Below are positions 40,642-42,820 of a stretch of DNA of 64,000 nt, piece after piece. Origin of the DNA: an uncultured Acidobacteriota bacterium (lineage in GTDB: Bacteria > Acidobacteriota > Vicinamibacteria > Vicinamibacterales > 2-12-FULL-66-21); contig CAVOHG010000008.1 in the NCBI GenBank assembly GCA_963695655.1, positions 909,380 to 973,379 of the forward strand, written 5' to 3'. Both the position numbers and the translations under genes were made by a program. Position 1 is the stretch's first letter, and each line of letters opens with the position of its first letter. Below the pieces are notes generated by a model, which worked only from the letters and a program-made list of their open reading frames with translations, searched no databases and was not told the origin of the DNA.

Positions 40642-40721
40642 GCTTCCGCCTCAAACCTCTGTAGCTTCCGCCTCAAACCTGTGTAGCTTCCGCCTTCAGG
40701 CGGAAGCCTCAAACCTGTGTA
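40642..40721. repeat. 22-nt tandem repeat (x2), then a third unit split by palindromic hairpin copy 4 (40687-40706)
   Basis: gcttccgcctcaaacctctgta / gcttccgcctcaaacctgtgta / gcttccgcc-ttcaggcggaag-cctcaaacctgtgta. The stop codon of the radical SAM gene lies inside the third unit. Confidence 0.85.
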
Positions 40722-42820
40722 CTGCTGGTGAAGACCTTGTGGCAGTGCACTTCCTGGACCGGGTCCTTCTTCTTCCCGCCCAGACCCTGGATCTGGATCA
40801 CGGGACCGGCCGGTTCTTCCTTGAGCACGTGCTGACGATAGAGCGCAGCCATCCGCTCGTTCTCTTCGAGCTTCTTGCGTGCGTCAGCCTTGGCGCGCAT
40901 CTTTTCTTCGCGCGCGGTCTTCGCAATGCCCTGGTCGTCGAGATCGTGCTGAATCCCGGCCGCCACGGCCTCGGCATCGAGCACGAGCGAGTGATTGGTG
41001 GTCGGGAGCGCGACCTTCTTGCCACCCGCGATGATCTCGTGACGGCCGTGCTCTTCGTACCACTTGGTCAGCGTGGCCGTCATGTGCATCTTCTCGATGA
41101 TGTTCCGCCAGCCGATCCCGGTGTTATAGGCGCAGAACGAAATCTCCCCCTCCTGCGTCGCGTACGGGATGATGCAGCGTTCCGTCCGGCGGAAGTCGTA
41201 GTTGAACAGGTCCTGGAACCACATGCCGGCGATGAACAGGAAGTTCCACCGGTCGGCCCGCCGCTTGGCAATGTCGGCCTTGGTCCGGTCGGCTCCGACC
41301 TTGCCGTAGTTCTTGCCGCTCGCGCCAAACGTCTTGTCGAACTTCAGCATCAGGTCCGACAGTTTGAAGTGGGTCGGCGCCTTGAAGGAATCGTAGTTCT
41401 TCATCAGCGCCAGGGCCATGCCGACTGACGACAGGAACTTGCCGCGCCCGGCGTCGTTCACGCGCTTCAGGTCGGTCGCCATCTGCTGGGCGTCGAGGAA
41501 GGCCGTGACCGGCACCGACTCCTTCGTTTCCTTGTCGATCATGACGGCCATGCCGATGCCACAGTTGGGATGGCATCCGCACGTCAGGTTGCCCCACTCG
41601 GCGGTCGGTCCGTGGACGAGGTCGGCCCAATCGGTGAAGGTGCCGATGAAGGAAATCGGGAACCAGTCCCGAACCGGTTCGCCGAGGCCGATTTGATTCT
41701 TCACGTCGTGCGCGAGGTGCGAGAGCGTGTAGCGCTGCGCCGTCCGCCGTTCGTCCGTAATCTCCTCGTCGCGCCCGGTGAACGACACCGGCTGGAACGA
41801 CAGGAAGTTGATCTTCTTTGGATTGTCGAGGGCGAACTGGATGATCCGGCCGACCTGCTCGTTGTTCACGCCGTTGACGATGGTCGTGACCGGAACGATG
41901 TCGACGCCGGCAGAATGGAGGTTCTCAATCGCCCTCAGCTTGACGTCGAACAGGTTGCCGACCAGGCGGTGCGAATTGGCGGCGTTGCCAATCCCGTCGA
42001 ACTGCAGGTACGCGTAACGGAGGCCCGCCTCGAAAGCCGCGCGGGCGAAATCGGGACTCTTCGCGAACTCGATTCCGTTCGTCGCCGCCTGCACGCTGCT
42101 GTAGCCAACCTTCTTCGCGTAGCGCACGGCGTCCAGGAAGTATGGTGACATCGTCGGCTCGCCGCCTGAGAACTGGACCGACATCTGCCGCTTCGGCTTG
42201 ATTGAAATCGCGTTGTCGAGAAGCGTCTGGATGTCTTCCCACGAGAGCTCGTGCACGAACCCGACCTGGTTTGCGTCCATGAAGCACGGATCGCACATCA
42301 TGTTGCAGCGATTCGTCAGGTCGATCGTCAGCACCGCGCCGCGGCCGTACTTGATCGTGCTGGTGCCGTGGTTGTGGAGCTTTTCGTCGTTGTGGGCGCG
42401 GATGTCGCTGCCCGGATACGAGTCTTCGAGATGTTTGAAGAACGCCGTGTCCATCGCCATCACGTCTTCGAAGTGGCCGTGGAGGGGGCAGTCCTTCACC
42501 ATCAGGATCTTGCCGTCGCGTTCGATGATGGTGGCCTTGATCTCGCCGATCTTCTCGTTCAGCAGGACCTTGTAGTCGCGCTTGCCGTCGAGGATCTCCT
42601 GGCGCGCTTCGCGAACGCAGGTCGGACAGAGCGAGTCGGTCTCGCGCGGCCAGCCGAGAGGCGGCTTCACCTTCTGCCACGACTTCTGAATCGGCTTGTC
42701 GGACCACTTGGGCGTGAAGGGCTCTGCCCGCTTCATGGAGTTGAACGCGTCGAATACGCCCCACGCGCCTTTGGCGGCGAACGTGAGCCCCTTCTCGACG
42801 TACTTGATCGGCTTATGCAT
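40709..42820 (-). CDS. large radical SAM enzyme of the MJ0619 / tetraether lipid synthase (Tes, GDGT-MAS)-like type
   Basis: ATG at 42820 is preceded by GGAGG. N-terminal Cys motifs (SLCPTC...VKDCPLHGHFED), radical SAM TNRCNMMCDPCF (CX3CX2C), and a further Cys-rich segment (NLTCGCHPNCG, ISFCAYN). Family assignment is from remembered motifs, not from a search. Confidence 0.75.
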   Translation of the reverse strand: MHKPIKYVEKGLTFAAKGAWGVFDAFNSMKRAEPFTPKWSDKPIQKSWQKVKPPLGWPRETDSLCPTCVREARQEILDGKRDYKVLLNEKIGEIKATIIERDGKILMVKDCPLHGHFEDVMAMDTAFFKHLEDSYPGSDIRAHNDEKLHNHGTSTIKYGRGAVLTIDLTNRCNMMCDPCFMDANQVGFVHELSWEDIQTLLDNAISIKPKRQMSVQFSGGEPTMSPYFLDAVRYAKKVGYSSVQAATNGIEFAKSPDFARAAFEAGLRYAYLQFDGIGNAANSHRLVGNLFDVKLRAIENLHSAGVDIVPVTTIVNGVNNEQVGRIIQFALDNPKKINFLSFQPVSFTGRDEEITDERRTAQRYTLSHLAHDVKNQIGLGEPVRDWFPISFIGTFTDWADLVHGPTAEWGNLTCGCHPNCGIGMAVMIDKETKESVPVTAFLDAQQMATDLKRVNDAGRGKFLSSVGMALALMKNYDSFKAPTHFKLSDLMLKFDKTFGASGKNYGKVGADRTKADIAKRRADRWNFLFIAGMWFQDLFNYDFRRTERCIIPYATQEGEISFCAYNTGIGWRNIIEKMHMTATLTKWYEEHGRHEIIAGGKKVALPTTNHSLVLDAEAVAAGIQHDLDDQGIAKTAREEKMRAKADARKKLEENERMAALYRQHVLKEEPAGPVIQIQGLGGKKKDPVQEVHCHKVFTSSTQV

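Follow-up and report, generated by a model that had tools for sequence, protein, structure and literature searches.

The window analysed here, a 64,000-nucleotide stretch of DNA from an uncultured Acidobacteriota bacterium, encodes a radical SAM protein of 703 residues (stop codon not counted) that is a bacterial homologue of the archaeal enzyme Tes/GDGT-MAS (MJ0619). Judged by its sequence, it belongs to a paralogous lineage and is not a canonical Tes orthologue. Acidobacteriota hold two distinct Tes-like lineages, and the family of the window gene, a lineage of about 700 residues that lacks the N-terminal [4Fe-4S] cluster, evolves slowly, is strongly conserved and occurs in all sampled classes of the phylum. 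By analogy with the archaeal enzyme, its most likely role (probability about 0.5) would be to join iso-C15 lipid chains tail to tail by Tes-like radical chemistry, which would form iso-diabolic-acid-type lipids.

As terrestrial proxies for temperature and pH, few compounds are used as widely as the brGDGTs, whose core is iso-diabolic acid, a major acidobacterial membrane lipid. For Mss of Thermotoga and Thermoanaerobacter, the same tail-to-tail C-C coupling has been proposed to yield diabolic or iso-diabolic acid, but literature descriptions set it apart as a separate radical SAM family. No homologues of Mss were found in the acidobacterial genomes examined, at thresholds of E ≤ 1e-50 and at least 30% identity, and the enzyme was found only in genomes of anaerobes (PMC13159169). 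With Mss not found in these genomes, Tes homologues are candidates for the enzyme that joins iso-C15 tails in Acidobacteriota. Tes-like genes of this phylum have been discussed as brGDGT candidates (PMC8941075), as the original prediction accurately stated. The published acidobacterial candidates include a 714-residue Solibacter protein; the window gene is a rediscovery and not a new lead. Awareness of two lineages guides the choice of the gene to express or delete and, where brGDGT producers are tracked by their genes, of the marker to count. A family that has naturally lost the N-terminal cluster is also informative on what this cofactor does in GDGT-MAS.

Table 1. Features of the Tes-like gene and its surroundings, in window coordinates
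Feature	Position	Strand	Basis
Intrinsic-terminator-like hairpin (13 pairs, 10 G-C), then TTCTTTTTCG	40582..40621	minus	Terminator scan
Three tandem 22-nt repeats and an inverted partial copy	40639..40721	.	Repeat search; overlaps stop codon
CDS of Tes-like radical SAM protein	40709..42820	minus	ORF list, shared homologue start, Pfam/NCBIfam/PDB matches
C-terminal extension, residues 594-703	40712..41041	minus	AlphaFold, column identity
C-terminal auxiliary-cluster and lipid-pocket domain, residues ~381-593	41042..41680	minus	Alignment, AlphaFold, 7TOM/7TOL superposition
Radical SAM core, residues ~163-380	41681..42334	minus	Pfam PF04055, E 5.2e-17
CX3CX2C motif, C172/C176/C179	42284-42307	minus	Aligned to MJ0619 C98, C102, C105
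Region aligned to MJ0619 N-terminal [4Fe-4S] ligands	42341..42406	minus	Ligands missing in window protein
Rubredoxin-like/HMPTM zinc-ribbon domain, residues 58-122	42455..42649	minus	Pfam PF23545, E 7.1e-14
N-terminal amphipathic helix, residues 2-29	42734..42817	minus	AlphaFold pLDDT above 90; hydrophobic moment 0.53
GGAGG, Shine-Dalgarno-like	42824..42828	minus	Direct reading; 3 nt before ATG at 42820

The open reading frame list and a direct reading of the sequence bear out the gene as first described, with 703 codons and an ATG preceded by GGAGG (Table 1). A longer TTG-started reading frame of the same gene extends to 42982; the ATG is favoured because all homologues begin with MHKPIKY. 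The motifs quoted in the original prediction are all present, namely SLCPTC...DCPLHGH (C65, C68, C111 and H114), CNMMCDPC (C172, C176 and C179), CGCHPNCG (C414, C416 and C420) and ISFCAYN, which holds C563.

Membership in the Tes/GDGT-MAS superfamily, the central claim of that prediction, is borne out by the 7TOL, NCBIfam and Pfam matches and by AlphaFold and Foldseek. The sequence of PDB entry 7TOL matched residues 93-589 with an E value of 6.9e-64, and the best NCBIfam match was the Tes model (NF045702; E 5.6e-94, 315.5 bits). The BLASTP and HMM comparison with MJ0619 suggested at the outset thus found homology, with 32% identity to the full-length archaeal protein over ~510 residues. A position among SPASM or cofactor enzymes had been regarded as evidence to the contrary; the window protein had no Pfam match to a SPASM domain, and NirJ, AhbC, PqqE and similar NCBIfam families reached at most 75 bits, over the radical SAM core only. 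The TrsS model (NF045646) gave 207 bits, over residues 92-377 alone and below its threshold of 490 bits.

Structure prediction led to the same assignment. An AlphaFold model built on a diverse alignment had a pLDDT of 84 and a pTM of 0.82; a model from a shallow alignment, whose members shared 72-92% identity with the query, was unusable at a pLDDT of 48.8. In Foldseek, the model matched 7TOM/7TOL with an E value of 1.4e-37 and a TM score of 0.86-0.87 over ~548 columns, and the remaining radical SAM structures aligned to the core alone (E ~1e-8). The window protein shares with the M. jannaschii enzyme both the fold and a four-part architecture, including a CX2C...CX2H rubredoxin-like site, a CX3CX2C motif and a C-terminal cluster with M533 and Y553. 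The C-terminal auxiliary-cluster and lipid-pocket domain was modelled confidently and superposes on 7TOM/7TOL. The window protein has no transmembrane segment and, as a radical SAM enzyme, is either cytoplasmic or peripheral.

The metal ligands can be assigned by alignment. C65/C68/C111/H114 of the rubredoxin-like site correspond to C9/C12/C33/H36 of MJ0619, and C420/M533/C549/Y553/C563 of the C-terminal domain to C338/M439/C455/Y459/C470. Neither the latter residues nor the radical SAM ligands vary among the family members and 72 canonical Tes proteins compared. The C-terminal domain also carries C414, which is extra relative to MJ0619, and C416, which matches a Cys of 53 of the 72 canonical proteins and a Ser in MJ0619. 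The picture differs at the N-terminal [4Fe-4S] cluster, where C73, C77, C80 and H83 of MJ0619 align to a gap, a gap, S154 and K157; these ligands occur in 72/72 canonical Tes proteins and 0/19 family members. Of the Fe-S ligands expected for a Tes-type enzyme, those of the radical SAM and C-terminal clusters are thus in place, and the four N-terminal ones are missing. The window protein retains two [4Fe-4S] clusters, the one that cleaves SAM and the C-terminal one with a labile Met and a conserved Tyr, as well as the metal site of rubredoxin type.

In addition to losing the surface N-terminal cluster, the lineage gained extensions at both ends. The N-terminal helix is part of an extension of ~56 residues without counterpart in MJ0619, whose BLASTP alignment begins at residue 59 of the window protein. 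A 22-residue insert separates the Cys pairs of the rubredoxin-like domain, with a spacing of 42 residues versus 20 in canonical Tes. Both features had been passed over in the first description of the gene. At the other end, 138 residues follow the last ligand Cys, compared with a median of 38 in canonical Tes. In the C-terminal extension, a disordered linker leads to a charged helix (residues 632-664; 40829-40927), after which comes a poorly conserved tail. The model has a pLDDT below 50 at residues 594-637 and 674-703 and of ~80 in the helix, and column identity is 0.61-0.64 for residues 590-668 and 0.29 for residues 669-703. An extension had been described as ~90 residues long and Lys/Glu-rich; it exists, but it runs for ~110 residues past the region aligned to MJ0619, and is markedly Lys/Glu-rich only at residues 632-668.

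The paralogous, non-canonical status of the protein follows from its sub-cutoff HMM score, the missing N-terminal cluster and its separate clade. The equivalog cutoff of the Tes model is 450 bits, above the score of the window protein, and Tes HMM scores were 447-593 bits for proteins with the N-cluster motif and 239-414 bits for those without it. In a neighbour-joining tree of 23 sequences, a distance method, proteins without the N-terminal cluster formed their own clade with 100% bootstrap support, apart from the MJ0619 clade. Canonical bacterial Tes proteins (Terriglobia P0508, S. usitatus Acid_5929 and a Koribacter protein) come from the same phylum and superfamily, and both types have been put forward in the literature as brGDGT candidates. 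The canonical type is ~540-550 residues long and retains the N-terminal cluster; the window type has ~700 residues and lacks it. P0508 scores 591 bits, which passes the Tes model, and its identity is 43% to MJ0619 and 36% to the window protein (321 bits). The canonical gene adjoins a 546-residue radical SAM/SPASM gene, whereas the window type stands alone, and in the present data set the window type spans more acidobacterial lineages.

The missing cluster and the sub-cutoff score may allow for an altered substrate or reaction. The window protein could be a Tes-like lipid-modifying enzyme that carries out intramolecular macrocyclisation or mid-chain cross-linking, or acts on another long-chain lipid or hydrophobic substrate, with canonical Tes or another enzyme making iso-diabolic acid and brGDGTs. 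Its separate clade, its low HMM score, the gain of C414 and the extensions would fit such a divergence, as would the cassette in which Terriglobia carry canonical Tes together with a glycosyltransferase and the second radical SAM/SPASM gene. Moreover, one of two M. acetivorans paralogues yielded only traces of macrocyclic archaeol. We nevertheless regard this explanation as rather unlikely, as the tail-coupling residues are all invariant, the whole lipid-pocket domain lies within the fold match, and canonical Tes is seemingly sporadic whereas the window family spans every lineage that makes iso-diabolic acid.

Relatives of the window protein occur in at least 596 species genomes. The best 80 of these are 74-96% identical to it and come from Vicinamibacterales, Blastocatellia, Bryobacterales/Solibacter and Acidobacteriaceae, with the cultured Acidipila rosea among them; one member (L054), of 76% identity, belongs to a Solibacter MAG. 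We take these four groups to correspond to subdivisions 6, 4, 3 and 1. Subdivisions 8, 10 and 23 are among those not known to make iso-diabolic acid. The reported makers are members of subdivisions 6, 4, 3 and 1 (PMC13159169). Identity of the window protein to its relatives is 83-86% where the adjoining MsrP/MsrQ reach only 59-70%. Since the catalytic ligands are all kept, identity across classes is 74-96% and conservation is far above that of the neighbours, the pattern marks an active enzyme under strong purifying selection. The same observations speak against a catalytically dead or decaying paralogue that is retained by chance or for structural reasons. Decay does occur among related proteins, as the N-cluster-less protein P0148 lacks the CX3CX2C motif and P0136 of Terriglobus roseus lacks the C-terminal cluster cysteines; for the ~700-residue family, with every catalytic ligand in place, we consider it highly improbable.

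The gene neighbourhood offers few clues to function. The gene had been described as heading a co-directional array of glycosidase and sugar-salvage genes. The shared direction is real, but its functional sense does not hold, as a hairpin intervenes and a GH2 gene adjoins the relatives' gene in 0/82 loci; the place at the head of the array is without functional meaning. This strong hairpin, whose trailing TTCTTTTTCG is a T-run, lies between the stop codon and the probable true start of GH2 at ~40565, and the same hairpin follows the gene of a 96%-identical relative (L003). Neither a riboswitch or leader RNA (Rfam) upstream of the gene nor a sigma-70 promoter (promoter scan) was detected. Transcription of the gene appears to occur alone or together with msrPQ, separately from the downstream sugar genes. 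As also stated at the outset, no lipid genes adjoin the window gene. When flanking open reading frames were clustered over the 82 loci, no family occurred in more than 13; the small clusters include QueG, ABC ATPase, MutY, TPR, DAO, S9 peptidase, TonB receptor, amidohydrolase and DUF4440, and none of the named clusters is lipid-related.

Immediately upstream of the gene, and in the same orientation, the window has the msrP-msrQ pair, an arrangement shared by 13 of the 82 loci. This linkage was rejected as a functional clue and is viewed as lineage-specific synteny. It could otherwise be taken, together with MoaA near the gene in some relatives, as pointing to a non-lipid function, either cofactor or small-molecule chemistry or a role tied to the MsrPQ molybdoenzyme system. 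An older annotation of MJ0619 as a pterin methyltransferase points in the same direction, and many members are called '7,8-dihydro-6-hydroxymethylpterin dimethyltransferase' in IMG. Such a function seems improbable. The msrPQ linkage is confined to Vicinamibacterales-like genomes and missing from the remaining 69 loci, the only full-length structural match is a lipid-binding enzyme, and the authors of the GDGT-MAS structure could not corroborate the pterin-methylase assignment (PMC9433317).

For tail-to-tail coupling, the preferred reading, a mechanism can be drawn from the archaeal enzyme. The roles of its catalytic residues have been described (PMC9433317), and its first lipid radical is held on the C-terminal cluster as a C-S adduct. 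In the acidobacterial protein, SAM would be cleaved twice to take hydrogen atoms from two lipid tails at their terminal carbons, the C-terminal [4Fe-4S] cluster would park the first lipid radical, and a C(sp3)-C(sp3) bond would then unite both tails. The archaeal substrates are isoprenoid diethers, whereas the window comes from a bacterium, whose lipids are built on fatty acids; the substrate here would be iso-C15 chains on ester- or ether-linked glycerolipids, and the product membrane-spanning iso-diabolic-acid-type lipids, the brGDGT core.

Homology, fold, catalytic residues, distribution and conservation above that of the neighbours count in favour of this role. The brGDGT-making E. aggregans has one Tes homologue, with 32% identity and an E value of 4e-61, and the 714-residue S. 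usitatus Acid_2410 (Q025C7) is 30.1% identical to archaeal Tes with an E value of 4e-62. With 30-32% identity and E values of ~1e-61, both resemble the ~700-residue family, in which we infer a place for them from the published numbers. Against the coupling role stand the lack of adjacent lipid genes or of any neighbour shared by more than 13/82 loci, and canonical Tes in Terriglobia, which, paired with its second radical SAM/SPASM gene, competes for brGDGT synthesis. Furthermore, production of membrane-spanning lipids has been shown for no bacterial Tes homologue (PMC11868695), and a T. ethanolicus homologue expressed in E. coli gave no such lipids. In one screen with a 30% identity threshold, Tes homologues occurred in just 3 of 14 iso-diabolic-acid-making acidobacteria; this threshold cuts through the window family, whose identity to Methanococcales Tes is 28.0-33.5%. 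A broader division of labour can be proposed tentatively. The ~700-residue paralogue may be the acidobacterial iso-diabolic-acid synthase in aerobes, and sporadic canonical Tes with its SPASM partner may, in some strains, perform another step, for example cyclisation or the condensation of diethers to brGDGTs, the 3/14 count then being a threshold artefact.

The extreme C terminus is peculiar to the window protein, as its final ~12 residues are unlike those of all relatives. The 22-nt repeat at this end of the gene has no other copies within the 64-kb window and was not found in L003. Apparently, a small indel removed the ancestral stop codon, and the reading frame now enters the tandem repeat.

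The 703-aa protein encoded by the Tes-like gene contains a Radical_SAM domain (Pfam, residues 168-330) and an HMPTM N-terminal zinc ribbon (58-122), and transmembrane segments were not found in it. Its top NCBIfam match is the Tes model NF045702 (315.5 bits, E 5.6e-94), under the curated cutoff of 450, followed by TrsS (207 bits vs a cutoff of 490). The MoaA, NirJ, and SPASM families cover the radical SAM core alone (at most 75 bits). A PDB sequence search retrieved 7TOL/7TOM, the structures of GDGT-MAS (MJ0619, the Tes of Methanocaldococcus jannaschii), at E 6.9e-64 over residues 93-589, with MoaA as runner-up (E 3e-06). 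Full-length MJ0619 is 32% identical by BLASTP (228 bits). AlphaFold gave a pLDDT of 48.8 with a shallow alignment and 84 with 93 diverse sequences (pTM 0.82; residues 1-593 confident). Foldseek matched this fold to 7TOM and 7TOL (E 1.4e-37 and 3.5e-36, TM 0.86-0.87, ~548 columns), and in the remaining radical SAM structures only the core was aligned (E ~1e-8, target TM ~0.5). These results establish that the protein is homologous to Tes, its C-terminal cluster and lipid-pocket domain included. The original prediction had named the correct family: its quoted motifs are all present, and the searches placed the protein with Tes rather than in another radical SAM subfamily.

Four metal sites have been defined in GDGT-MAS by Lloyd et al. 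(PMC9433317), namely a rubredoxin-like iron (C9X2C12X20C33X2H36), a surface N-terminal [4Fe-4S] cluster (C73, C77, C80, and a conserved His), a radical SAM cluster (CX3CX2C), and a C-terminal [4Fe-4S] cluster that has a labile Met439, adjoins two lipid pockets, and bears the sulfur-substrate intermediate. Among archaea, Tyr459 is strictly conserved, and the role of the N-terminal cluster is unknown according to the same authors (PMC9433317). Residues were mapped through alignments in MJ0619 numbering, using 19 members of the window family (the ~700-aa acidobacterial relatives) and 72 canonical Tes, the type that bears the N-terminal cluster. The rubredoxin-like, radical SAM, and C-terminal sites are invariant in both sets. 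All four N-terminal ligands occur in 100% of the canonical Tes and in 0/19 window-family members; at this place the window protein reads ...HNDEKLHNHGTSTIKYGRG. This pattern indicates that the catalysis-implicated machinery is kept by the window family and that one peripheral cluster is missing. The equivalent of C416 is a Cys in 53 of the 72 canonical Tes, and C414 is extra.

The same division is seen in the NCBIfam Tes scores, which separate cleanly into 447-593 bits for proteins with the N-cluster motif and 239-414 bits for those lacking it. Neighbour joining on 496 columns with 100 bootstraps gives one clade (100% support) for all N-cluster-less proteins, separate from that of MJ0619; inside this N-cluster-less clade, the ~700-aa acidobacterial proteins are a tight, short-branched subclade (100% support). 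P0508, a protein from Terriglobia with the NCBI name "tetraether lipid synthase Tes", has 43% identity to MJ0619 (E 1e-151) and only 36% to the window protein, and by this comparison two Tes-like lineages are present in Acidobacteriota. Two N-cluster-less members are degenerate: P0148 has lost the CX3CX2C motif, and P0136 (Terriglobus roseus DSM 18391, WP_014786616.1) lacks the Tyr as well as the cysteines of the C-terminal cluster. These paralogues may be pseudo-enzymes or proteins with other functions.

Protein searches returned more than 8000 matches, the 120 best being at least 83% identical, ~697 aa long, and derived from Vicinamibacterales and other Acidobacteriota MAGs. In a genome scan with one genome per species, a relative is encoded at no fewer than 596 loci. 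The best 80 of these show 74-96% identity across ~690 residues and come from Vicinamibacterales, Blastocatellia, Bryobacterales and Solibacter, and Terriglobia and Acidobacteriaceae, including the cultured Acidipila rosea DSM 103428 (Acidobacteriaceae); a few bear non-acidobacterial MAG labels, probably through binning errors. The closest relative in the scan (96%) is from a MAG labelled "uncultured Acidobacteriota bacterium", and the next taxonomically named ones are from Vicinamibacterales. In shared genomes, the Tes-like protein is 83-86% identical, vs 59-70% for the adjacent MsrP and MsrQ. The window family is a distinct paralogous lineage with extensions and without the N-terminal cluster; its conservation is very high, and it is present across the acidobacterial classes sampled.

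Zeng et al. 2022 described 456 bacterial Tes homologues, acidobacterial ones included, and suggested that these take part in making brGDGTs (PMC8941075). Their listing gives Koribacter (42%, 1e-149), Solibacter (40%, 1e-139), and a single homologue in E. aggregans (32%, 4e-61) (PMC8941075). For S. usitatus, Halamka et al. 2022 (PMC10087280, Table S5) reported Acid_5929 (545 aa, 40.2%, 1.4e-139) and Acid_2410 (714 aa, 30.1%, 4.2e-62). By its published length and similarity Acid_2410 would belong to the window family, as would the E. aggregans homologue by its similarity figures. Chen et al. suggested Tes-bearing acidobacteria of subdivisions 4 and 6 for study (bioRxiv 2022.04.07.487437). Since acidobacterial Tes homologues, apparently including the ~700-aa type, are already published as brGDGT candidates, the finding is not new. 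Mss, the membrane-spanning lipid synthase of Thermotoga and Thermoanaerobacter, was absent from the acidobacterial genomes examined by Sahonero-Canavesi et al. 2022, and only 3/14 iso-diabolic-acid producers had a Tes homologue at E <= 1e-50 and identity >= 30% (PMC13159169). Identity between window-family members and Methanococcales Tes runs from 28.0% to 33.5%, so the 30% threshold cuts through the family, and the published negative correlation between Tes homologues and iso-diabolic acid production is threshold-sensitive. As of 2025-2026, none of the papers searched reports a functionally confirmed bacterial Tes homologue; one from T. ethanolicus did not produce a membrane-spanning lipid in E. 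coli.

Beyond the fold, cofactor ligands, and lineage, which were read from sequence and model, we infer the following catalysis. SAM would be cleaved at the C172/C176/C179 cluster and a terminal hydrogen taken from one lipid tail; the C420/C549/C563/M533 cluster would hold the resulting radical in the form of a C-S adduct; hydrogen abstraction from the second tail would then be followed by joining of the tails through a C-C bond. Iso-C15 chains predominate in acidobacterial lipids, and we take the classes carrying the window family to be subdivisions 1, 3, 4, and 6, makers of iso-diabolic acid. The most economical assignment is thus conversion of iso-C15 chains to iso-diabolic-acid-type membrane-spanning lipids, with a probability of about 0.5. 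More speculatively, the rubredoxin-like site probably relays electrons, and contacts with the membrane or a partner may be made through the charged C-terminal helix and an N-terminal amphipathic helix.

Canonical Tes in Terriglobia has conserved neighbours, whereas the window family is without such partners. The order at three loci (two MAGs, one sequencing-run assembly) is acyl-CoA dehydrogenase, a Lactamase_B protein (opposite strand), Tes (591 bits, N-terminal cluster present), a 546-aa radical SAM/SPASM gene on the same strand, and a GT9 glycosyltransferase; one locus has beta-oxidation genes farther upstream. The SPASM protein falls under all NCBIfam cutoffs (nearest families AhbD and NirJ) and could be a Grs-like ring synthase, and the locus may be a brGDGT-related cassette.

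Positions of features in the window, of aligned residues, and of the canonical Tes cassettes (in locus coordinates)
Feature	Position	Strand	Remark
MsrP-like molybdoenzyme (Oxidored_molyb)	43621-44742	minus	upstream of Tes-like gene
MsrQ-like haem protein (Ferric_reduct)	43008-43682	minus	upstream of Tes-like gene
Tes-like CDS	40709-42820	minus	703-aa ORF
Three tandem 22-nt repeats (GTAGCTTCCGCCTCAAACCTGT) and inverted partial copy	40639-40721		10-bp perfect hairpin; overlaps Tes-like stop codon
Hairpin, 13-bp stem and T-run	40621-40582		3' of Tes-like stop, 5' of likely true GH2 start
GH2, aldose epimerase, GH39, FUSC family, ABC transporter, nucleotidyltransferase, galactokinase		minus	downstream of Tes-like gene
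Block between Tes-like gene and HtrA/MoaA	17764-40628		~23 kb; absent between these genes in L002
HtrA	16097-17524
MoaA	14132-15313
Rubredoxin-like site of MJ0619	C65, C68, C111, H114		window residues
Radical SAM cluster of MJ0619	C172, C176, C179		window residues
C-terminal cluster and neighbours of MJ0619	C420, M533, C549, Y553, C563		window residues
N-terminal cluster of MJ0619 (C73, C77, C80, H83)	gap, gap, S154, K157		window residues
Canonical Tes cassette, L083	8001-12851
Canonical Tes cassette, L084	4499-9349
Canonical Tes cassette, L085	8001-12800

The window has a G+C content of 64.9%. GGAGG was read 3 nt before the ATG at 42820, and a longer, TTG-started ORF extends to 42982; the ATG is the real start, because all close homologues begin with MHKPIKY. 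A Lys/Glu-rich C-terminal extension of ~90 aa had been described. The extension exists, but it reaches ~110 aa beyond the MJ0619-aligned region and is strongly Lys/Glu-rich at 632-668 only; an N-terminal extension of ~56 aa had been passed over, as had 22 aa inserted in the N-terminal metal site between its two Cys pairs. The C-terminal extension shows moderate conservation at 590-668 but not in the tail beyond; AlphaFold models a disordered linker, a single long charged helix (632-664), and a disordered end. The final ~12 residues are unlike every relative. The 96% identical relative L003 ends in ...CACAAGGACCAGCAATAG, and a small insertion in the window gene has apparently removed the stop seen there, the reading frame continuing into the 22-nt repeat, which has no other copy within the window and none in L003. 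The hairpin with the T-run also lies 3' of the Tes-like gene in L003; the likely true GH2 start is a signal-peptide Met at ~40565.

MsrPQ genes lie directly upstream on the same strand in the window and in only 13 of 82 related loci (L001-L012, L023). Nearly all of these 13 are among the closest relatives (identity 79-96%), several of them bearing the label Vicinamibacterales, and the linkage is probably lineage-specific synteny; with gaps of 41-187 nt, co-transcription is possible. The original prediction had the gene heading a glycosidase array, a context that relatives do not conserve: GH2 adjoins it in 0/82 loci and aldose epimerase in 1/82. Unbiased clustering of flanking ORFs at the 82 loci gave no family at more than 13 loci, and the small clusters were not lipid-related; the window-family gene is without operon partners. 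The window contains no lipid genes, and Rfam gave no match upstream of the Tes-like gene. HtrA and MoaA lie directly 3' of the Tes-like gene in L002 and ~23 kb from it in the window. The intervening block (a 1378-aa TonB-dependent receptor, GFO/IDH oxidoreductase, GH2, GH39, aldose epimerase, galactokinase, nucleotidyltransferase, ABC-2 transporter, and FUSC family protein) thus resembles a variable insertion for carbohydrate utilisation.

Elsewhere in the window, three large ORFs with high GC3, at 46064-48199 (+), 52859-54439 (-), and 62297-63463 (+), encode 711, 526, and 388 aa and have no Pfam match at E <= 1e-4. Two sigma-54-dependent activators, one with a receiver domain and the other without, form an adjacent pair at 58206-59720 and 59970-61094 (+), and such a pair is also found near the Tes-like gene in L002.
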